DNA from: Pseudophaeobacter sp.
GTDB lineage: Bacteria > Pseudomonadota > Alphaproteobacteria > Rhodobacterales > Rhodobacteraceae
Reading direction: 5' to 3'
Length of the DNA stretch: 64,000 nucleotides
NCBI RefSeq assembly: GCF_039971195.1
Contig: NZ_JBDWPJ010000034.1
Coordinates: forward strand, 1,887-65,886
A program made the translations under genes and the position numbers. Position 1 is the stretch's first letter; each line of letters starts with the position of its first letter. Positions 38,964 to 49,321 of the stretch are shown piece by piece. The notes under the pieces are model-generated. The model had not been told where the DNA came from, searched no databases, and saw only the letters and a list, made by a program, of their open reading frames with translations.

Positions 38964-39546
38964 TTAGGCCACTTTCCGTTCAAAAGTGACGGGGCTTTTC
39001 CAGCCTAATGCTGAGTGGCCGCAGCGCGGATTGTAAAAGCCGTTTATGTATTCGAAGATTGCCATCTCAGCTTTGCGTCCTGTCTCCCAAGGATATCGCC
39101 GGATCAGCTCTGCCTTGATCGTCTTGAAGAAGGTCTCAACAGCCGCATTATCGTAGCAATTACCTTTGCCAGACATCGATACCTTGAACCCGTGCTGGCG
39201 CAGGATTTTCTGATAGTCATGAGAGCAGTATTGCGACCCGCGATCCGTGTGGTGGATGCAGCCTCTGGGCCGTGTTCTGAACGCAATGGCTAATTTCAAC
39301 GCCCTTATCGCCAGGTCCCGTTTCATCCGATTGCTGACCGCCCAGCCAATGACACGGCGTGAATGCAAGTCCCGGATCACAGCAAGATACAGCCATCCCT
39401 CACGGGTCCACACATAGGCGATGTCACCGGCCCATTTCTGGTTGGGTTCGGAAAGCACGCAGACCACATGCGCTGACGCCGACAACATTGCAAAGTCGGT
39501 TGGCCGGAAAGTCAGACCTGTGTTCTTCGGTAAACCCAAATCTCAT
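38964..39546 (-). pseudogene. IS3 OrfB (rve/DDE) with in-gene deletion and frameshift
   Basis: Frame starting at ATG 39546 (MRFGFTEEHRSDFPANRLCNVVGVS) jumps to PNQKWAGD in another frame; HTDRGSQY and CYDNAAVETFFKTIKAE retained. Confidence 0.85.
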
Positions 39547-39839
39547 TGCTTTAGGCCTGCGAAGAACTGGGTGGCCTTTTTTAAGATTTCCCTCTCCTCC
39601 TTGAAGAGCCGGATCTCACGTCGAAGTCGATCATTCTCTTCGGCGAGGCTCAGATCCTCTTTCGACACCACATCTGTGTCCTGATGGGCTGTGATCCATT
39701 TGTTCAAAGGCGACATTCCGACACCCAAATCATCAGCACCCTGCTTACGCGTAGGCCCGCTGGTCAGCGCGATACGCACCGTATCATGGCGGAATTTGTC
39801 CGTCCGTTTCTGTCCCACAGCCCGTCTCCTTTGCTGCAA
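39543..39839 (-). CDS. IS3 OrfA (HTH); true start probably downstream of 39839
   Basis: ADDLGVGMSPLNKW, ENDRLRREIRLFKEEREILKKATQFF. Confidence 0.85.
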   Translation of the reverse strand: MQQRRRAVGQKRTDKFRHDTVRIALTSGPTRKQGADDLGVGMSPLNKWITAHQDTDVVSKEDLSLAEENDRLRREIRLFKEEREILKKATQFFAGLKQ

Positions 39840-39877
39840 TAAATGCTATCAAAGGAGCGGCATCAAACCGCGACAGG

Positions 39878-40186
39878 TCAAGTTCTATGGATCTTCAGGT
39901 GGGTCGCTTCAATCATTAGTGTGCCTGTTGCATCGCCTTGAGCGGCCAGTACGGTCAGGATGCGTGCAAAGACGCCCATCTGGGACCATCGCGCCCATCG
40001 GTTGTAAAGCGTCTTATATGGCCCATAATCTGATGGAGCGTCTCGCCAGCGCAAGCCATTGCGAATGACATGGATGATGCCACTGAGAACCTTTCGGTCG
40101 CCAGCACGAGCAACACCATGTGGCTTTGGGAACATATGCTTGATGCGGTTGAGACGCTCTGGATTGAGCCAGAACAGATGCGACAT
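39878..40186 (-). pseudogene. IS5-family (IS427-like) transposase N-terminal fragment, cut at the IS3 end
   Basis: DRKVLSGIIHVIRNGLRWRDAPSDYGPYKTLYNRWARWS, LMIEATHLKIHRT; ends where the IS3 terminal repeat begins. Confidence 0.82.
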
Positions 40187-40391: not shown

Positions 40392-41011
40392 ATGATTGAT
40401 CCGGTCGGTTAATGTCGGTTGGCATTGCATTTTTTGTTGTGGCTGCTTCTCCGGGCCCCGCAACTTTGGCAGCGGCGACTGTTTCCATGAGTTCTGGTAG
40501 AAGCAACGGGCTTCGTTTCGGTATGGGGTTGTCGGTCGGATTGGCTTTCTGGGGACTGGTTGCGGCCACAGGCGTGGGAGCCGTTTTACAGGCGTCGACA
40601 TATGCCCTAACGGCTCTCAAGGTCTTTGGCGGCGGATATCTCTTATGGCTTGCCTTCAAAACTGCCCGATCTGCCTGTGAAAAGACGCCACCCATGACGC
40701 CACAGGAGGCAAACGGGAGATGGTTCAAACGCGGGCTCATCCTAAATCTATCAAACCCTAAAGCTGTTGTCGCTTAGATGTCGACGCTTTCCTTGGGATT
40801 GGGGGATGGTGATGGGGTTTGGCAGGTGGCGCTGGCCACATCAATTTGCGTGGCACTGGGTTTCTTTATCTACTTTGTTTACGCAGTCACTTTTTCCTTG
40901 CCTAGAGCAATGAGTGGCTACGCGCGGGTCCGCAAATGGGTCGATGGCGCGGTCGCTGGTCTCTTCGCCATTGCGGGGGTGGGCCTTTTGCGATCAGCAT
41001 TCAGCAAGTAA
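40392..41011 (+). pseudogene. LysE/RhtB family exporter pseudogene
   Basis: SPGP, GGGYLLWLA and NPKAVVA motifs; in-frame TAG at 40775-40777 at the usual Trp position; apparent 1-bp frameshift between ATG 40392 and ATG 40412. Confidence 0.82.
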
Positions 41012-41156: not shown

Positions 41157-41187
41157 AAAAGGGCTGGCATTCGCCAGCCCTTTTTTG
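41157..41187. terminator. Bidirectional terminator
   Basis: aaaagggctggc-attc-gccagcccttttt. Confidence 0.75.
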
Positions 41188-41293: not shown

Positions 41294-42214
41294 TTAGGTG
41301 GTGGAAACGATCCATTCTGGGCGGATGCCGCATTTGACGATATAGTGCGCGACATTGTGGCCGCGAAACAGCCCGTGATCGGTGATCAGGACCGTGCCAA
41401 TGCCCACAGCTGCCCCACCCAGCACATCCGTGTGCAGGGTATCACCCACCATGGCAATACGCCCTTCGTCGATTCCCTGCAGCCGGGCCAGCGCTGCCTC
41501 AAAGGCGTTGCAAAAGGGTTTTCCGTAAAACTGCGCCTCTCCGCCAGTACGCTCAGTGATCTGATGAGCAATCAAGCCTGGCTCAATCGACAGGCCGGTT
41601 TCGCGCGGTGCCACCAGGTCAGGATTGGCCACGATCAGTGGCCTTGGGTTCTCTTCGAGAGCGGAAGTTAGAGCCTCCGTGTCTGCATCACTCCAACGCG
41701 CCGACGACAACAGCAGAAAACCAGCAGCACTGCGCAGCAGTTCCATGTCATCAGCCAGCTGTTTGATCCGCGCTGTTTTGGGCGCATCGCTGAAATCATC
41801 GCCTTCAGCAGCGGCAGCGGCCCAGATCCCGCCATCCTGCAATTGCGGCAGATTTGCAAAGGCCACATCGCGGCTGGAAACCACCTCTTCGGCCTGAAAG
41901 TCAAAGCCAAGCCGGTGATACTTTGCCAGAATTTCAGCGCGGGTGTAGCTGGCGGCATTGGTCAGAACCACCAGCCGCTTGCCCGCAGCGCGAAGCATGG
42001 CCATACGCTCAACCGCGCCCTCAATAGCAGTCTCGCCGCGATTCAAGACGCCAAAGGCATCCAGAATATAGGCGTCATAGTCACCCATTGTATCGCCCAG
42101 ATCTTGCCCGGTCTGACTGCGGCTGGCAAAGACTGCGGGAGGCAGGACAGATCGCACAGATTCATATCTGTTAAAGGCCCAATTGGTATCGATCATCTTT
42201 CCACTTTCATGCAA
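41294..42214 (-). CDS. HAD-superfamily class IIA hydrolase with atypical motif I (DAFGVL)
   Basis: Motifs LDAFGVLN, LTNAAS, NPD, GKP, MVGDTLHTDVLGG. Confidence 0.88.
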   Translation of the reverse strand: MHESGKMIDTNWAFNRYESVRSVLPPAVFASRSQTGQDLGDTMGDYDAYILDAFGVLNRGETAIEGAVERMAMLRAAGKRLVVLTNAASYTRAEILAKYHRLGFDFQAEEVVSSRDVAFANLPQLQDGGIWAAAAAEGDDFSDAPKTARIKQLADDMELLRSAAGFLLLSSARWSDADTEALTSALEENPRPLIVANPDLVAPRETGLSIEPGLIAHQITERTGGEAQFYGKPFCNAFEAALARLQGIDEGRIAMVGDTLHTDVLGGAAVGIGTVLITDHGLFRGHNVAHYIVKCGIRPEWIVSTT

Positions 42215-42318: not shown

Positions 42319-43131
42319 TTACAGGATCTTTTTGCGCAGGTAAGAAGACACAACCTCGCCAAAGACCACCAAAGCCAGGATGGTCAAAAGCACCATGGAG
42401 ACCTCAGGCCAGTTGAAGGTATCAATTGCGCCTTGCAGGATCATGCCAATACCGCCAGCACCAACCAACCCCAGCACGGTGGATTCCCGAAGGTTGATGT
42501 CCCAGCGCAGGATTGCCACGGCAAAGAAGGCCGGCATCACTTGTGGAACAATGGCATAGAGCACAATCTTGAAGCGGGAGGCCCCGCAGGCCTCCAGCGC
42601 CTCCACCGGCTTCTGGTCAATTTCCTCGATTGCCTCACCCAGCAACTTACCCAGAAACCCGATGGAACGGAACATGATCGCCACAATGCCCGCCACGATC
42701 CCAGGTCCAAAAATGGCCACGAACAGAAGCGCCCAGATGATGGTATTGACTGAGCGCGACGAGACCAGAATGAACCTCCCAATCCAGAGCGCGATACGGT
42801 TTGGCGTGGTGTTCTGCGCCGAGATATAGGCCACCGGCAGGGAGACAACCACGGCAATCATTGTGGCCAGGGTGGCGATATTCACCGTCTGCCAGATCGC
42901 CTCCAGAATTGAAGGTAGATTGCGCGGGTCCGGTGGCATCATCCGGGCAAACAGATCCCCCATCTGATTGGGCGCGTCCCAGACCCACTCCCAGATCACA
43001 TTGATGCTGCTCAGCGCCCAGGCCACCACCAAGAGGGTGAGCGCGAGACCACCATAGCGCATCAGGCGCTGGCGCAGGGTGAAACGGGACCAATGGTCCA
43101 GGGTTTGTTGCAGAGGTTGAGTGCTCATCAC
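42319..43131 (-). CDS. PhnE/PtxC-type ABC permease
   Basis: GFLGKLLGEAIEEID, RWDINLRESTVLGLVGAGGIG. Confidence 0.9.
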   Translation of the reverse strand: MMSTQPLQQTLDHWSRFTLRQRLMRYGGLALTLLVVAWALSSINVIWEWVWDAPNQMGDLFARMMPPDPRNLPSILEAIWQTVNIATLATMIAVVVSLPVAYISAQNTTPNRIALWIGRFILVSSRSVNTIIWALLFVAIFGPGIVAGIVAIMFRSIGFLGKLLGEAIEEIDQKPVEALEACGASRFKIVLYAIVPQVMPAFFAVAILRWDINLRESTVLGLVGAGGIGMILQGAIDTFNWPEVSMVLLTILALVVFGEVVSSYLRKKIL

Positions 43132-43918
43132 GCGATCCGCTTTCTGATAAATCCGCTCACCGCCTCAGAGATGAGGATCACCCCAACGATGACCATAGTG
43201 ATGGCGAGGGCAAAATCGTAGTCATAGCGGCCAAAGGCATTGGCCAGCGTCGCGCCAATGCCACCTGCCCCGACAATGCCCACCACAGCAGAGGCCCGCA
43301 GGTTGCTGTCCAACTGGTAGATCCCCAGTCCCACAAGACGGGGCATGATCTGCGGCAGCACCGCATAGGCCAATGTCACGATATAGCCCGCCCCAGCAGC
43401 GCGCATGGCTTCGACTTGGCCAAAATCGATTTCTTCGATCCGTTCCGCCAGCAGTTTGGCGACGAACCCAATGGAATAGACCACCAGGGTAAGCGCCCCG
43501 GCAAAGGGGCCAAAGCCTACTGCCTTCACAAAGATGATGGCGACAATCACCGGGTGGAAACTGCGCGCCACAATGATGATGCCACGGCCCAAAAGATAGA
43601 TCGGTTTGATGGCAATATTGCCTGCCGCCATAAAGGCCAAAGGCACCGACAATAGAATCCCCCCAACGGTGGCCAGGATGGCGATTTTCAGGCTTTCGAG
43701 GAAACCATCAATCATCAAGCCGGACCGCTCAAAACTGGGAGGAAAGGCGCCGCTGAAAATCCGCTGCGCGCGGCTCATCCCGTCCGACACCCGTTCCCAG
43801 TCAATCGGCAAGGTCGCCAGGGTGAAGATGAAATAGAGCGCAACTGCGCCGTAAAGACCTAACCGTATCAACGGGTTGGCGATGAAGGGCGGTTTACGCC
43901 AGCTGCCTTTTGCCTGAC

Positions 43919-43922
<4 letters not shown>
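43128..43922 (-). CDS. PhnE/PtxC-type ABC permease, second copy
   Basis: GFVAKLLAERIEEID, NLRASAVVGIVGAGGIG. Confidence 0.9.
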
Positions 43923-44692
<770 letters not shown>

Positions 44693-44836: not shown

Positions 44837-45820
44837 TTACTTCCCGGCGAGGCCCTGAGGTGTGTATTCCACCCCGTTGGACTTCTGGATCTGGCGGATG
44901 ACCGCCCACTGATCCTGATAGGTGATCGGGATGAACTTGCTTACACCTGCGAATTCTTCACCTAGTTTTGTGCCTTCAAATTCAAAGGTAAAGAAGGCTT
45001 CCTTAATCTTGGCAGCGAGCTCAGGATCAAGGTTGTGGGCGACGTTGAACGAGGTCGTGGGGAAAGGATCACTCTCCCAGATCTTACGAACATCAGCCGT
45101 GTCATACAGCCCACGCTCGGCCATGCGATCCACCACTTCGGAGGCCACTGGCGCCGCGTCGTAATCGCCTGCAACCACGCCCAGCATCGACTGGTCATGG
45201 GAGCCGGAATAAACCACTTCGTAGTCCTTGTCGGGCTCAACACCCAGTCCGGGGAACAGTGCCCGTGGCGCCTGATTGCCAGAGTTGGAGGTTGGCGAGG
45301 TATGGGCCACACGGCGACCGGCCAAATCCCCAACGGATTTGATATCACTGTCGGCCTGGGTAAAGACCTGCAGCTTGTAGCCAAACTGGCCATCCTCGGC
45401 GCCCATGATGGCAAAGGGCACGGCTCCAGCCAAGTTGACCGCAAAGGGGGTTGGCCCGGTTGAGAAACCCGCCACATGCAGGCGGCCCGAACGCATGGCT
45501 TCAACTTCGGCTGAATTAGACTGCACGGCAAAGAACTGAACATCCTTGCCGGTCACACCTTCCAGGTGTTCGATGAAGGGAGCCCAGATATCGGCATAGA
45601 CCGCCGGGTCCTCAACCGGAGTATAGGCAAAGACCAGAGTGTCCGGATTGCTCAACTTGGCCGGATCAGTGGGGGTATCCGCCACCAGATCGCCATTGGC
45701 GTCACAATAAAGCACGTCCAGCGCGCCCCTCTCGGCACAGTCTTCGGCGGCAGAGGCTGCAAATGTGCTCGCAGTCAGAATGCCCAGTGCCCCAGCGGCA
45801 CGGGTGATGAATTTTGTCAT
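44837..45820 (-). CDS. PhnD/PtxB-type substrate-binding protein
   Basis: Signal peptide, HTSPTSNSG anion-binding loop, GSHD; N-terminal CxxRGxLDxxYCD extension. Confidence 0.88.
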   Translation of the reverse strand: MTKFITRAAGALGILTASTFAASAAEDCAERGALDVLYCDANGDLVADTPTDPAKLSNPDTLVFAYTPVEDPAVYADIWAPFIEHLEGVTGKDVQFFAVQSNSAEVEAMRSGRLHVAGFSTGPTPFAVNLAGAVPFAIMGAEDGQFGYKLQVFTQADSDIKSVGDLAGRRVAHTSPTSNSGNQAPRALFPGLGVEPDKDYEVVYSGSHDQSMLGVVAGDYDAAPVASEVVDRMAERGLYDTADVRKIWESDPFPTTSFNVAHNLDPELAAKIKEAFFTFEFEGTKLGEEFAGVSKFIPITYQDQWAVIRQIQKSNGVEYTPQGLAGK

Positions 45821-45923
45821 GTTGTCCTCCCTAAAAACGCCGACCTCCGGATCCCTAACCCACAGGTTCGACGCTGACCTCATCACGATAGGAGGTCGCT
45901 TTGCCGTGACGCGAGCCGCGTCG

Positions 45924-45962
45924 TGTTAACGAAACCGCCAAAACTGCGGTTTAATGTTAACA
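45924..45962. promoter_or_regulatory. Dyad-symmetric element in the divergent promoter region
   Basis: TGTTAAC-G-AAACCGC-caaaact-GCGGTTT-AAT-GTTAACA. Confidence 0.45.
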
Positions 45963-46079
45963 GTATTACAATCCCCGTCACATCCTCTTAAAATCTGGCA
46001 GGATTTGCTTCACTGAAGCAAAGGGGCTGATCAACACCGGCCCCCAATAGTACGCAGGATGTGGCAGGAGGAGGGTTGC

Positions 46080-46802
46080 ATGCAGGCAGGGAGGTCCGAG
46101 CCGCTCATCGCCATTGTGGACGATGACGCAGATGTACGTGACACGCTTTCTGCCTTGATGCGCGAAAGCGGTTTTGACGCGATCTGCTGTGCAGATATAG
46201 CTGCTTTCCTGGCGCTTGGAGATCCGCCTCAGGTGGATCTGGCGCTGATCGATCTGCGCCTGCGCGGTGAAAGCGGGCTGACGCTGGCCATCCACATACG
46301 GGAACGCTACGAAATCCCCATTGTCATGCTCACCGGTGTAGGGGATGAAATCGACAAGATCATCGGTCTGGAGACCGGGGCCGATGACTACATGATCAAG
46401 CCTTTCAACCCCCGTGAACTAGTAGCCCGGATACGCGCGGTGCTGCGCCGCTATGGCCATGGCACCGCCAAACCCAGCGCCTCCCCCGGCAAAGAAATCC
46501 ACTTTGGCCCCATGCGCATTGATGTACCGTCGCGCCGATTGCTGGATGCGGTCGGCGAAGAGATCCCGCTGACCAATGCCGAATACCGGTTGTTGGAATA
46601 CTTTGCCCGCAATCCTAACCGGGTCATCCCGCGCCCAGAACTGCTGGAAGAGCTGGGCTCGGATATGCAGCGCTATGTGGACCGGACCATTGATGTGCTG
46701 ATTTTGCGCCTGCGTCGCAAGATCGAAGCCACCCCGTCCAAACCAGTGCACCTGCAGACCCGCAGGGCGCAGGGCTATATCTTCCACCTGGCACCAAACT
46801 GA
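46080..46802 (+). CDS. OmpR-family response regulator
   Basis: IVDDD, LIDLRL, GADDYMIKPFNPREL, RTIDVLILRLRRKIE; GGAGGAGG RBS. Confidence 0.93.
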   Translation: MQAGRSEPLIAIVDDDADVRDTLSALMRESGFDAICCADIAAFLALGDPPQVDLALIDLRLRGESGLTLAIHIRERYEIPIVMLTGVGDEIDKIIGLETGADDYMIKPFNPRELVARIRAVLRRYGHGTAKPSASPGKEIHFGPMRIDVPSRRLLDAVGEEIPLTNAEYRLLEYFARNPNRVIPRPELLEELGSDMQRYVDRTIDVLILRLRRKIEATPSKPVHLQTRRAQGYIFHLAPN

Positions 46803-46807
46803 AGCCC

Positions 46808-49321
46808 ATGATCCCTGCCCTCCGCCACCTCAGCGTTCGATTTCGCCTCACTGCCGCCCTCGCCGTGCTCTTTTGCCTGATGTTGCTGGTCAGCCTCATC
46901 GGATTGCGGGTATTGAACCGGACGGAGTTCTGGATGAACACCCTGCATCAAGACACCCTGGCAGAGGTCTCTGACGCGCTGAACCTGTCCCGCCTCTCAG
47001 CCGATCTCGCCACCTCGGCCCCGTTTCTATATGCGCTGTTTCCCCCCTTTCAGCTGGAACAGGAATCTCAGGACGTGCTGGAGACCCTCCGAAAGATAGA
47101 ATCCCAGGCCCAAGGAGAGCCCGCCCTGGATCTGCCACTGGCCAGGCTGCGGCTGGCGATTGACGATCTGACCACGGCCCTCGTACCACAGACCGCCCGC
47201 AAGGCCGATCTCGTGGCAATTGATCGTGGTCTTGAGCGGTTGAACCAACGGGCCCGGCGGCAGGCAGGCGATACCTCTCGCCCGCTGGCGGAGCGCGAGA
47301 TCTGGACTGGGCTGCAACAGCTGACCGCCAGCGCCATAGGTGCCGTGCGGGCCAATGCGCTGATTGAACTGGGGGAATTCTCGCGTCGATATGCCCAGGC
47401 CAGAGCGGCCCTTCAGCCGAAACTCTTGCCTCCGCTACGCGCCACCTTTGACGAGATCGACAGGGTACTAAGCCGCAGCGAAGGCCTGTTTGTGCTCAAA
47501 CACAAGGAAATTGCCGCCCAGCTGGATGCGGAAAACGCCCTGTATCGCATCCGGCAAGAGGCCAGCCGGATCACCCGTTTTGCCGAAGACAAAGTGGCCC
47601 AAGCCGAGGCTCGGCTGTCGCAGGCGAGGGCCGAGACATCAAACAATCTCAGCATCGCCAAAAACTGGTTTCTGGCCCTCACCCTGATGAGCCTCTTGGT
47701 GGCGATCAGCTCTTCGCAGTATGTCTCGCGCTATGTGGCCGGCAATCTGCAACGCATCGCTGAAGCCATGCGCCGATTGGCGGCCGGCAACCATCGCGCT
47801 GATCTGCCCAAGGGGCCAAAATCCACGGATGAAATTGGCCAGCTGTTCGCCGCCTTTGCGGTGTTTCGTGAAAACGCCCGCAAACTGGACCGGCGCACCA
47901 GCCAGATCCGACACCAGAACGCGCTCTTTTCACGGGTGTTTCGCAATATCACCGATGGAGTGGCGATCACTTCTGCCCAGGGTGAGATCGAGGCCGAAAA
48001 CGACAATCTACGCCAGCTGCTCCGGCTTCCCCCCGCTCCAAAGGGACACCAGGTCCCAATCCCGATGCTGATGGCGCAGTCCACTTTCTCCCCCCGGGCC
48101 AGCGCCGACGAGCCGGGCGGTTTTGAAGAGTTTACCGACCCCTCCGGCAATGTGCTGGAGCTGCGCCATTCGCCCTTGCCGGATGGCGGCGCTGTCTGGC
48201 TGCTGTCGGAAACCACGGAACGCAAAAAGGTCGAAGAGCGATTGGAAGAAATCCGCAGGGTGGAGACCCTGGGCAAGGTTTCCGGTGAAATCGCCCATGA
48301 TTTTGGCAATATCCTCTCCAGTATATCTGGCAATCTTCACCTGCTCGAAAGCGCTGAACCTGCGCAGTCACAACATTTTCGCGCCCGCATCCGCTCTGCG
48401 GTTGACTTGGGTGTTTCCCTGACAGAACGGCTCTTGGCCTTTGCGCGCAAACAGCATCTGGAACCGCAGGTTACTGATATCGGCCAATTGATCGACGGAA
48501 TGGTCGACCTGCTGGAAATCGCCCTGCCCGGGGAGGTCACCCTCCAGTATCAAGCACCAGAGCAGCCGGTTCTGGCGCGGGTGGATCCCGGACAGCTGGA
48601 AAGCGCGGTGCTCAACCTCTGTGTCAATGCCGGGCAGTCGATTGAGGGCGCTGGTACTGTGACCCTGACGGTACGAGATGATCATGGCGCGCGACTTACC
48701 ATTCAAGACAGCGGCGCGGGCATGAGTCCGGAAGTTTTGCGCCGCGCCACCGAGCCCTTCTTCACCAATCGCGCTGATGGCAGTGGCACCGGACTTGGGC
48801 TCTCCATGGTAGATGGGTTTGTTCATCAGTCCGGTGGCCAGTTGTTGCTCAACTCGCGGGTGGTACCGCCAAACCAAGGGACAGCCGTGACTTTGCAGTT
48901 TCCTGCCCTCAGAACAGAGCATGACGGTGCCGCGCTCGTCTCTAGCCCCGGATCCGCACTGGTGGTGGATGACGATCCAGCCTCCCTCGCCTCTGCCTCG
49001 AAAGCTCTCGAACAGCTGGGATATGCGGTGACACAGGCAACAAGCTTCCATCAGGGGCTGGACCAGCTTGAAAACCTGTCCAGGCCGGATCTCATCCTAA
49101 GCGATCTCAATCTGGACAGCGGTGCCTCTGGCTGGGAGTTGTTGATACACGGCCATGACCTGCACCCAGCCTGTCAGCTGGCGCTGATGTCCACGCGGGA
49201 AAACCCAATCGTGCCCAGCGAGTTAAGCGCGATATCTAACCTCAGCATCCTCACCAAACCCTTAGGTGAGGATGAGGTGAAACAGCTCCTCCTCACCGCA
49301 AATCAAAATGGTAAGCCTTAG
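46808..49321 (+). CDS. Hybrid sensor histidine kinase (TM, helical periplasmic domain, TM, HAMP, PAS-like, HisKA, HATPase, REC)
   Basis: AHDFGNIL H-box, LNLCVNA N-box, DSGAGM, GTGLGLS, C-terminal VVDDD receiver. Confidence 0.92.
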   Translation: MIPALRHLSVRFRLTAALAVLFCLMLLVSLIGLRVLNRTEFWMNTLHQDTLAEVSDALNLSRLSADLATSAPFLYALFPPFQLEQESQDVLETLRKIESQAQGEPALDLPLARLRLAIDDLTTALVPQTARKADLVAIDRGLERLNQRARRQAGDTSRPLAEREIWTGLQQLTASAIGAVRANALIELGEFSRRYAQARAALQPKLLPPLRATFDEIDRVLSRSEGLFVLKHKEIAAQLDAENALYRIRQEASRITRFAEDKVAQAEARLSQARAETSNNLSIAKNWFLALTLMSLLVAISSSQYVSRYVAGNLQRIAEAMRRLAAGNHRADLPKGPKSTDEIGQLFAAFAVFRENARKLDRRTSQIRHQNALFSRVFRNITDGVAITSAQGEIEAENDNLRQLLRLPPAPKGHQVPIPMLMAQSTFSPRASADEPGGFEEFTDPSGNVLELRHSPLPDGGAVWLLSETTERKKVEERLEEIRRVETLGKVSGEIAHDFGNILSSISGNLHLLESAEPAQSQHFRARIRSAVDLGVSLTERLLAFARKQHLEPQVTDIGQLIDGMVDLLEIALPGEVTLQYQAPEQPVLARVDPGQLESAVLNLCVNAGQSIEGAGTVTLTVRDDHGARLTIQDSGAGMSPEVLRRATEPFFTNRADGSGTGLGLSMVDGFVHQSGGQLLLNSRVVPPNQGTAVTLQFPALRTEHDGAALVSSPGSALVVDDDPASLASASKALEQLGYAVTQATSFHQGLDQLENLSRPDLILSDLNLDSGASGWELLIHGHDLHPACQLALMSTRENPIVPSELSAISNLSILTKPLGEDEVKQLLLTANQNGKP

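Follow-up and report, generated by a model that had tools for sequence, protein, structure and literature searches.

The window, a stretch of 64,000 nucleotides of Pseudophaeobacter sp. DNA (contig NZ_JBDWPJ010000034.1, positions 1,887 to 65,886 of the forward strand), carries on its minus strand a gene for a hydrolase of the HAD superfamily, hereafter the window HAD, whose motif I lacks the second aspartate (Asp+2), the general acid/base of canonical HAD phosphatases. Its sequence context places it as the fifth and last gene of the gpx operon (GpxB, ATPase, two permeases, HAD), which is predicted to encode an importer of sn-glycerol-1-phosphate (G1P) and sn-glycerol-3-phosphate (G3P) and is adjoined by a divergently oriented two-component system. 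The features of the locus are given below; identities refer to Phaeobacter (Roseobacter) sp. MED193, the main organism of the published work on the Gpx system (Wang et al., PNAS 2025, PMC12718374).

41157..41180, minus strand: GC-rich hairpin GGGCTGGC-GAAT-GCCAGCCC followed by TTTT, read directly from the sequence.
41294..42196, minus strand: HAD-IIA hydrolase gene, 300 amino acids, orthologue of MED193_19469 (Pfam, NCBIfam and homology).
42319..43131, minus strand: second permease of the Gpx (PhnE-type) ABC importer (TIGR01097 PhnE, 302 bits; 95% identity).
43128..43922, minus strand: first permease of the Gpx ABC importer (TIGR01097, 261.5 bits; 88% identity).
43919..44692, minus strand: ATPase (PhnC-type) of the Gpx ABC importer (TIGR02315, 313.9 bits; 93% identity).
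44837..45820, minus strand: gpxB, periplasmic G1P/G3P-binding protein with PhnD-type fold (91% identity to MED193 GpxB).
46059..46802, plus strand: divergent OmpR-type response regulator (Pfam Response_reg and Trans_reg_C).
46808..49321, plus strand: hybrid histidine kinase, orthologue of MED193_19439 (HAMP, PAS, HisKA, HATPase_c and receiver domains).

The open frame of the HAD gene spans 41294..42214 on the minus strand and begins with a TTG codon. An ATG at 42196, six codons inside this frame and preceded by a purine-rich stretch, is almost certainly the true start, because nearly all homologues, and also P0002, a database protein 100% identical to the window HAD, have the resulting length of 300 amino acids. 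For the ATPase, the start was set at the ATG giving 257 amino acids, which matches homologue lengths. The hairpin at 41157..41180 is a probable intrinsic terminator closing the operon; a consensus terminator scan did not list it because its T-run has just 4 T. No phnW, phnA or C-P lyase genes were found in the operon, the neighbours of the HAD gene being transporter and regulator genes only. The divergent arrangement of the regulator was also observed in Leisingera, Salipiger and MED193. Between the response regulator gene and gpxB, at about 45920-45960, lies a near-perfect palindrome (GTTAAC-ATT-AAACCGC ... GCGGTTT-C-GTTAAC), a candidate operator of the putatively G1P/G3P-responsive two-component system.

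The window HAD is composed of the Pfam domains Hydrolase_6 and Hydrolase_like and passes the cut-off of TIGR01460 (HAD subfamily IIA; C2 cap, NagD-like) with 107.4 bits (cut-off 100.15). It narrowly passes that of TIGR01459 (HAD-SF-IIA-hyp4; 109.5 bits, cut-off 103.75), which a relative from a different gene context (L064, see below) fails with 94.5 bits, so that this branch stands at the edge of the TIGR01459 model. The threshold of TIGR01458 (LHPP/HDHD2-type, HAD-IIA-hyp3; P-N and pyrophosphate hydrolases) was not reached (57.3 bits, cut-off 175.95), and the PhnX model was absent among the 16 NCBIfam matches with E values up to 0.01. An AlphaFold2 model built on 112 sequences (pLDDT 97.5, pTM 0.93) had exclusively C2-cap HAD-IIA proteins as top fold matches, with PDB 2HX1 as the best (TM 0.81/0.86), followed by pyridoxal-phosphate phosphatases and phosphoglycolate phosphatases. 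By score and fold the window HAD belongs to HAD-IIA, although a feature that defines canonical HAD phosphatases is missing from it, and it is neither PhnX nor an LHPP-type enzyme.

The catalytic motifs lie at the following positions, in the numbering of the 300 amino acid product and with column counts from the curated family alignment A2 (112 full-length members, 29-77% identity).

42044..42061, minus strand: motif I, D46-A47-F48-G49-V50-L51, with the nucleophile Asp kept and Phe at Asp+2.
41957..41962, minus strand: motif II, T79-N80 (T/S in 112/112, N in 112/112).
41519..41521, minus strand: motif III, Lys226 in G-K-P (K in 112/112).
41426..41443 (D252-D257), minus strand: motif IV, G-D252-T-L-H255-T-D257, Mg-binding acidic pair and subfamily His (D252 in 111/112, D257 in 112/112, H255 in 101/112).

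In HMMER alignments to solved D-x-D enzymes, D46 aligned with the nucleophile of 4jdp/3qgm (yiiDiDGV) and F48 fell exactly on Asp+2; 7po7, present in the same alignments, is a catalytic-site variant (NcDGVL). The column of position 48 contained F in 76, Y in 29, W in 6 and S in 1 of the 112 aligned members and D or E in none, while D46, T/S79, N80, K226 and D257 were invariant. Phe occupied Asp+2 in 120/120 close homologues. Moreover, no D was found there among the 150 best representatives of 50%-identity clusters built on 1.8 billion proteins: where motif I could be read it had F, Y or W, save for a few doubtful regular-expression matches. Loss of Asp+2 with the scaffold kept is far beyond chance. 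The preliminary description had reported a motif I D-A-F-G-V-L without the second Asp next to intact motifs II-IV, and the alignments and column counts confirm this reading; its premise that the general acid/base is missing from an otherwise intact catalytic scaffold is borne out. Acid/base catalysis by this protein therefore cannot be canonical.

An aromatic residue at Asp+2 is not restricted to the close relatives of the window HAD. Its best match in sequence (E 3e-20) as well as in fold, 2HX1 of Cytophaga hutchinsonii ('possible sugar phosphatase, HAD superfamily'), shares motif I DAFGVL and motif IV GDTLHTD, but is only ~27% identical and is a structural genomics entry from the Bacteroidota without assigned function. 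The genome of the window itself encodes a paralogue (contig C80 of G000; L001:973-1848, minus strand) with the motif I D-L-W-G-C-V-H-N-G. It sits between a MaoC-like dehydratase open reading frame and a DHH-family open reading frame that, read by eye, resembles family II pyrophosphatase. Members of the TIGR01459 family such as this paralogue and 6NQ4 of Brucella suis match the same NCBIfam model as the window HAD and likewise have an aromatic residue for Asp+2. However, the paralogue is ~30% identical, has Trp instead of Phe48 and His instead of Asn52, and shows no transporter link, and in the D-x-W branch the motif IV His is not conserved, unlike in the window HAD subfamily. Paralogue-type D-x-W matches (~30% identity to the window HAD) were detected in nearly all of 150 sampled Rhodobacteraceae genera, represented by one genome each, and were not transporter-linked. 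Among the best 30 HAD-IIA genes from a sample of 120 Pseudomonadota genomes, 22 lacked Asp+2 (17 with W, 5 with F or Y) and 8 had D-x-D.

Since the D-x-aromatic motif recurs family-wide, in 2HX1, in the paralogue and across Pseudomonadota, the loss of Asp+2 is ancient and clade-defining, the aromatic residue being a signature of the whole, very large TIGR01459-like clade, to which no function is assigned. The mechanistic puzzle is real, but is shared by the whole clade and is not a local oddity. Chronophin (pyridoxal-phosphate phosphatase) and phosphoglycolate phosphatase resemble the window HAD in overall fold, C2 cap and motifs II-IV, including N-P-D and G-D-x-x-x-T-D, but carry Asp at Asp+2 where the window HAD has Phe; in mouse phosphoglycolate phosphatase (DGVLWRGE) Trp stands four residues on, where the window HAD has Asn. 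The literature searched yielded nothing on TIGR01459, 2HX1 or the Asp+2 motif variant, and the work on phosphate limitation in roseobacters and on G1P phosphatases that was searched contained nothing on the window HAD family. The preliminary description had regarded a DxF motif common to many unlinked housekeeping homologues of known activity as speaking against new chemistry. The first part of this applies, in that the D-x-aromatic family is very large and includes unlinked paralogues, while the second does not, as none of them has a known activity in the literature searched.

Given this signature, catalysis must use another group; another residue as the source of acid/base catalysis was also the alternative named in the preliminary description. 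Protons could be transferred via the substrate's own phosphate proton or a neighbouring hydroxyl, or via N52, H255 or E205, and a long-lived phospho-enzyme may take part. In the 112-member alignment, N52 (103/112; His in the D-x-W branch), E205 (94/112), R109 and D193 are conserved candidate residues. The equivalent of H255 is present in 2HX1 as well as in the contig C80 paralogue. As a general replacement of Asp+2, H255 was rejected: in D-x-W proteins this position is occupied by M, R, E, V, A, P or I, and five DAF/DAY proteins among the 30 HAD-IIA genes carry D, E or T. H255 is therefore not the general solution, being conserved neither in the D-x-W branch nor in some DAF/DAY relatives, but it remains one candidate.

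The substrate of the adjacent transporter bears directly on the function of the HAD. The binding protein encoded in the window scored 141 bits against the PhnD equivalog model and did not reach its cut-off of 261. By far its best match among solved structures was 9LF9/9LFB (E 9e-95), entries for Marinobacter sp. GpxB with G1P and G3P as ligands (PMC12718374). The nine ligand residues named in that study (T111, G112, Y138, S168, N169, S170, H199, R223 and T247, crystal-structure numbering) were all matched in the window protein (9/9). Phosphonate, phosphite and hypophosphite were considered as transported substrates and rejected, PtxB, HtxB and E. coli PhnD matching with E values of 1e-24 to 1e-10. 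GpxB binds G1P with a Kd of 2.5 µM and G3P with a Kd of 1.0 µM, whereas other C3 phosphates are bound poorly; growth on G1P or G3P is abolished in a gpxB ugpB double mutant, and UgpB of MED193 binds G1P as well as G3P (PMC12718374). The MED193 locus (L043) agrees with the window in all seven genes and in their order, with identities of 91% for the binding protein, 93% for the ATPase, 88% and 95% for the permeases, 85% for the regulator, 68% for the kinase and 72% for the HAD. Based on this orthology to the MED193 Gpx system, for which GpxB ligands and the mutant phenotype are published, we assign the apparent 'phosphonate transporter' of the window as a G1P/G3P importer orthologous to the GpxB system.

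The HAD of this locus has been detected in MED193 at the protein level. Table S1 of PMC12718374 lists an 'Uncharacterized protein MED193_19469' directly after three transporter proteins; compared to glycerol, its log2 fold change was 3.84 for G1P and 3.68 for G3P, a ~13- to 14-fold induction on both substrates. By exact-sequence look-up, the MED193 HAD that follows the second permease proved to be this 'hypothetical protein MED193_19469' (EAQ47405.1); like the window HAD it has 300 amino acids, a DAFGVLN motif and a place in a seven-gene locus. The kinase MED193_19439 was likewise induced on G1P and G3P, and apart from the transporter and the kinase, MED193_19469 was the only induced protein of the locus. 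The HAD appears solely in the supplementary table, the words 'phosphatase' and 'hydrolase' being absent from the text of PMC12718374. No glycerol-phosphate dehydrogenase, kinase or other catabolic enzyme was raised in Table S1 relative to glycerol-grown cells, as expected if the pathway merges with glycerol catabolism.

The linkage of HAD and importer extends to other genera. When the 150 Rhodobacteraceae genera were compared for HAD and GpxB, a GpxB homologue was found in 45 sampled genomes besides that of the window. A strong HAD homologue was located within 5 kb on the same contig in 26 of these 45, each from another genus; in 2/45 HAD and gpx were split by contig ends or disrupted, and in 5/45 the HAD lay elsewhere. 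The order permease-permease-HAD was present in 19 of 29 loci inspected with 1.5-kb flanks, often with gaps of <30 bp or overlapping reading frames. In 83 named loci from species-representative genomes, the HAD directly followed the second Gpx permease in 18, while in 7-9 it followed ugpBAEC and a GDPD (UgpQ-type) phosphodiesterase, several of these ugp-GDPD-HAD loci having a Na/Pi cotransporter-family gene next. Since UgpB also binds G1P and G3P, glycerol phosphate is a substrate common to the gpx and ugp contexts. A quick maximum-likelihood search placed the window HAD in a clade of 22 (99% SH-aLRT) with 12 gpx-linked, 5 ugp-linked and 5 unlinked members. In this tree the Tritonibacter HAD from a ugp context is sister to a Pseudophaeobacter HAD from a gpx context, each being ~75% identical to the window protein. 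Four close relatives from Celeribacter and Shimia-like genomes were unlinked to a transporter; their neighbours, among them molybdopterin enzyme accessory genes and peptidases, were unrelated and offered no clue to function.

A third conserved context of the HAD is a polyol-type cluster, exemplified by L064:1016-9888 (Rhodobacter kunshanensis) and present in similar loci (L057-L117). It comprises genes for a SorC regulator, a CUT1 ABC transporter, a MalK-like ATPase, an Fe-ADH_2 protein, a SIS isomerase and an SDR, followed by the HAD. The 448 amino acid Fe-ADH_2 protein scored best against NAD(P)-dependent G1P dehydrogenase (148 bits, below cut-off), the SIS isomerase is HxlB-like and the SDR is a GolD/DthD-type dehydrogenase. 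These assignments suggest a hitherto undescribed pathway for polyols or polyol phosphates. The pairing of a HAD-IIA protein with a G1P-dehydrogenase-like one recalls AraL/AraM of Bacillus subtilis.

Some apparent fusions and one unexpected host were set aside. The GDPD-HAD fusion P0232 (586 amino acids, L037:7001-8919) was rejected as Rosetta-stone evidence, given a 52 amino acid fragment of the HAD C-terminus downstream; the likeliest cause is a frameshift in a long-read assembly that joined two neighbouring genes, and the locus was counted only as a ugp-GDPD-HAD neighbourhood. Frames of 580-590 amino acids were rejected as permease-HAD fusions, the two tblastn matches lying in different frames. 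A complete roseobacter-type gpx-HAD locus with ~90% protein identity to the window occurred in L050, an assembly labelled Nocardioides marinus DP1N28-1 that is probably contaminated or mislabelled, horizontal transfer being less likely.

On balance we consider it probable, though by no means assured, that the window HAD works in the cytoplasm as a glycerol-phosphate phosphatase (EC 3.1.3.21 type) that supplies glycerol kinase, with substrate and hydrolytic outcome suggested by context, induction and orthology. The divergent two-component system would control the gpx operon, and the Gpx transporter would import G1P and G3P. The HAD, as a Mg-dependent aspartyl-phosphotransferase of the HAD-IIA (C2 cap) type, would then remove the phosphate to yield achiral glycerol and inorganic phosphate (Pi). 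Glycerol kinase would convert the glycerol to G3P, which GlpD would oxidise, and this route would make the 'wrong-handed' archaeal G1P a source of carbon and phosphorus. The substrate is likely an ordinary alkyl phosphomonoester, because the transporter is orthologous to GpxB and the MED193 HAD is induced by G1P and G3P. The window's genome encodes a glycerol kinase (674.7 bits, well above cut-off), a GlpD-type DAO_C domain and UgpB, and no G1P dehydrogenase was found in it above cut-off, the best match (34 bits) being aroB. Passage through achiral glycerol is the most economical reading of how a bacterium uses the archaeal enantiomer, and release of free Pi would agree with the Na/Pi cotransporter-family gene often found downstream of the HAD. 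The proposed reaction is that of the G3P phosphatase Rv1692 of Mycobacterium tuberculosis (4I9F/4I9G) and of yeast Gpp1/Gpp2. Rv1692 is a HAD-IIA protein and a fold match, although a distant one (E 1e-8). The yeast enzymes fall in another HAD subclass, and they and Rv1692 presumably carry D-x-D in its canonical form.

Several observations weigh against this assignment. A plain phosphatase is mechanistically awkward, because an alkyl phosphate has a poor leaving group, for which Asp+2 is normally needed; such a substrate makes the absence of Asp+2 harder to explain, and the phospho-aspartate still needs hydrolysis. The literature searched contained no enzyme assay of any member of the HAD family, and dephosphorylation of G3P followed by re-phosphorylation costs ATP. 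In the window, the gap before the HAD gene is ~120 bp, which leaves room for separate regulation, compared to <30 bp in other genomes. Furthermore, a strong HAD homologue was missing in 12 of the 45 gpxB-positive genomes, which had only the D-x-W paralogue or, in G125, no match at the threshold used. The HAD is therefore not obligatory for the transporter, and in these genomes another enzyme must handle imported G1P; G095, G087, G012, G080, G086, G114, G125 and G129 are among them. Finally, the HAD ends the polyol-type cluster in ~35-40 of the 83 named loci, the largest share, and the substrate range of the family may therefore exceed glycerol phosphate.

The last two points also fit a broad small-polyol- or sugar-phosphate phosphatase acting as an overflow valve against build-up of G1P and G3P when the importers are fully induced, an explanation that we regard as unlikely but worth retaining. 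It would account for the three transporter-linked contexts, including the polyol cluster with its SDR, SIS isomerase and G1P-dehydrogenase-like protein, and for the absence of the HAD from a quarter of the gpx-positive genomes, and many HAD-IIA enzymes are known to be promiscuous. However, the tight operon linkage, often with gaps below 30 bp or overlapping frames, the 13- to 14-fold co-induction and the swapping of near-identical HADs between both G1P/G3P importers point to a dedicated role.

A missing general base can also be read as a means to shield the phospho-enzyme from water, as in P-type ATPases, where Thr at the Asp+2 position protects the phospho-enzyme. The window HAD would then be a phosphomutase, or stereo-inverting phosphotransferase, in which Asp46 accepts the phosphate group from G1P. 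While the cap stays closed over the glycerol, the group would be handed back to the opposite primary hydroxyl, so that G3P forms and the ester is not lost. Glycerol being prochiral, a shift of phosphate from position 1 to 3 interconverts the enantiomers. Loss of the water-activating residue throughout the family, with all phosphate and Mg ligands kept, is what such an enzyme would show; moreover, the MED193 HAD is induced on G1P and the proteome relative to glycerol fits a mutase as well as a phosphatase. On the other hand, the known HAD mutases, beta-phosphoglucomutase and phosphomannomutase, keep Asp+2, since phosphate transfer onto a hydroxyl, as well as away from it, also calls for acid/base help. 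The recurrent Na/Pi cotransporter-family gene directly downstream suggests free Pi, and the operon contains no bisphosphate-forming partner. We therefore think it improbable that the HAD is a mutase, and equally improbable the wider conjecture that the whole D-x-aromatic HAD-IIA clade, with the near-universal alphaproteobacterial D-x-W paralogue among its members, works by a non-canonical mechanism and shields its phospho-aspartate from water, with the gpx-linked HAD as a glycerol-phosphate 1,3-phosphomutase that converts G1P to G3P across the 'lipid divide'.

Slightly more doubtful still is a substrate whose leaving group needs no protonation, such as a phosphonate with an electron sink, a phosphoramidate, an acyl phosphate or pyrophosphate. 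HAD members without Asp+2 do have such substrates, namely PhnX (Ala) and LHPP (Ser, IIA subclass); the LHPP structure 2X4D was among the fold matches, and by sequence the transporter belongs to a phosphonate-uptake family. The preliminary description had followed this line and suggested, by analogy to PhnX, an unusual leaving group (C-P, P-N or acyl-phosphate). The phosphonoacetaldehyde hydrolase PhnX, although a HAD without Asp+2 like the window HAD, has a C1 cap with a Schiff-base Lys, works with PhnW and acts on a phosphonate. The analogy does not hold for the C2-cap HAD-IIA fold of the window HAD, and an exotic leaving group is unsupported now that the transporter's ligand is known: the importer takes up G1P and G3P and not a phosphonate, and the HAD orthologue is induced by both. 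In addition, no PhnX model was listed, the score of 57 bits against TIGR01458 compares with a required 176, genes for PhnW, PhnA or C-P lyase are missing from the operon, and the ugp-GDPD context yields G3P. Least credible of all is a catalytically dead or very slow HAD that binds glycerol phosphate and regulates the adjacent histidine kinase or the transporter: pseudo-phosphatases commonly arise when the acid/base residue is lost and a dedicated two-component system adjoins the operon, but the nucleophile, Mg ligands and Lys are invariant in hundreds of diverged sequences, beyond the needs of binding, the family also occurs with LysR or SorC regulators in place of the window-type kinase, and the HAD has no interaction domain.

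The region 3' of the operon differs from that in Leisingera and MED193. On the plus strand, a LysE-family exporter gene (40412-41011) contains one in-frame TAG, at 40775-40777, which breaks it into two halves. These correspond to the N-terminal and the C-terminal portion of the Pfam LysE model, and the gene is probably a recent pseudogene. Just past it, at 38964-40186, lie insertion-sequence remnants (an IS3-type integrase core and DUF4096 of IS4/IS5 type).

Marine bacteria import G1P, the backbone of archaeal lipids, but no intracellular enzyme acting on it is named in PMC12718374. Co-transcribed, co-induced and positioned at the end of both known G1P/G3P importers, the HAD is the obvious candidate: as the unstudied, co-induced fifth gene of a published G1P/G3P import locus, it is a prime candidate for the first intracellular step in recycling of the archaeal lipid backbone. 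If the favoured role as glycerol-phosphate phosphatase is confirmed, the first bacterial route for this recycling would be complete, and the gene could serve as a marker in ocean surveys. A physiological substrate for one branch would also open the structurally solved but functionally blank HAD-IIA clade to experiment, and one could then test directly by what mechanism alkyl phosphates are turned over in a HAD enzyme that lacks the general acid/base.

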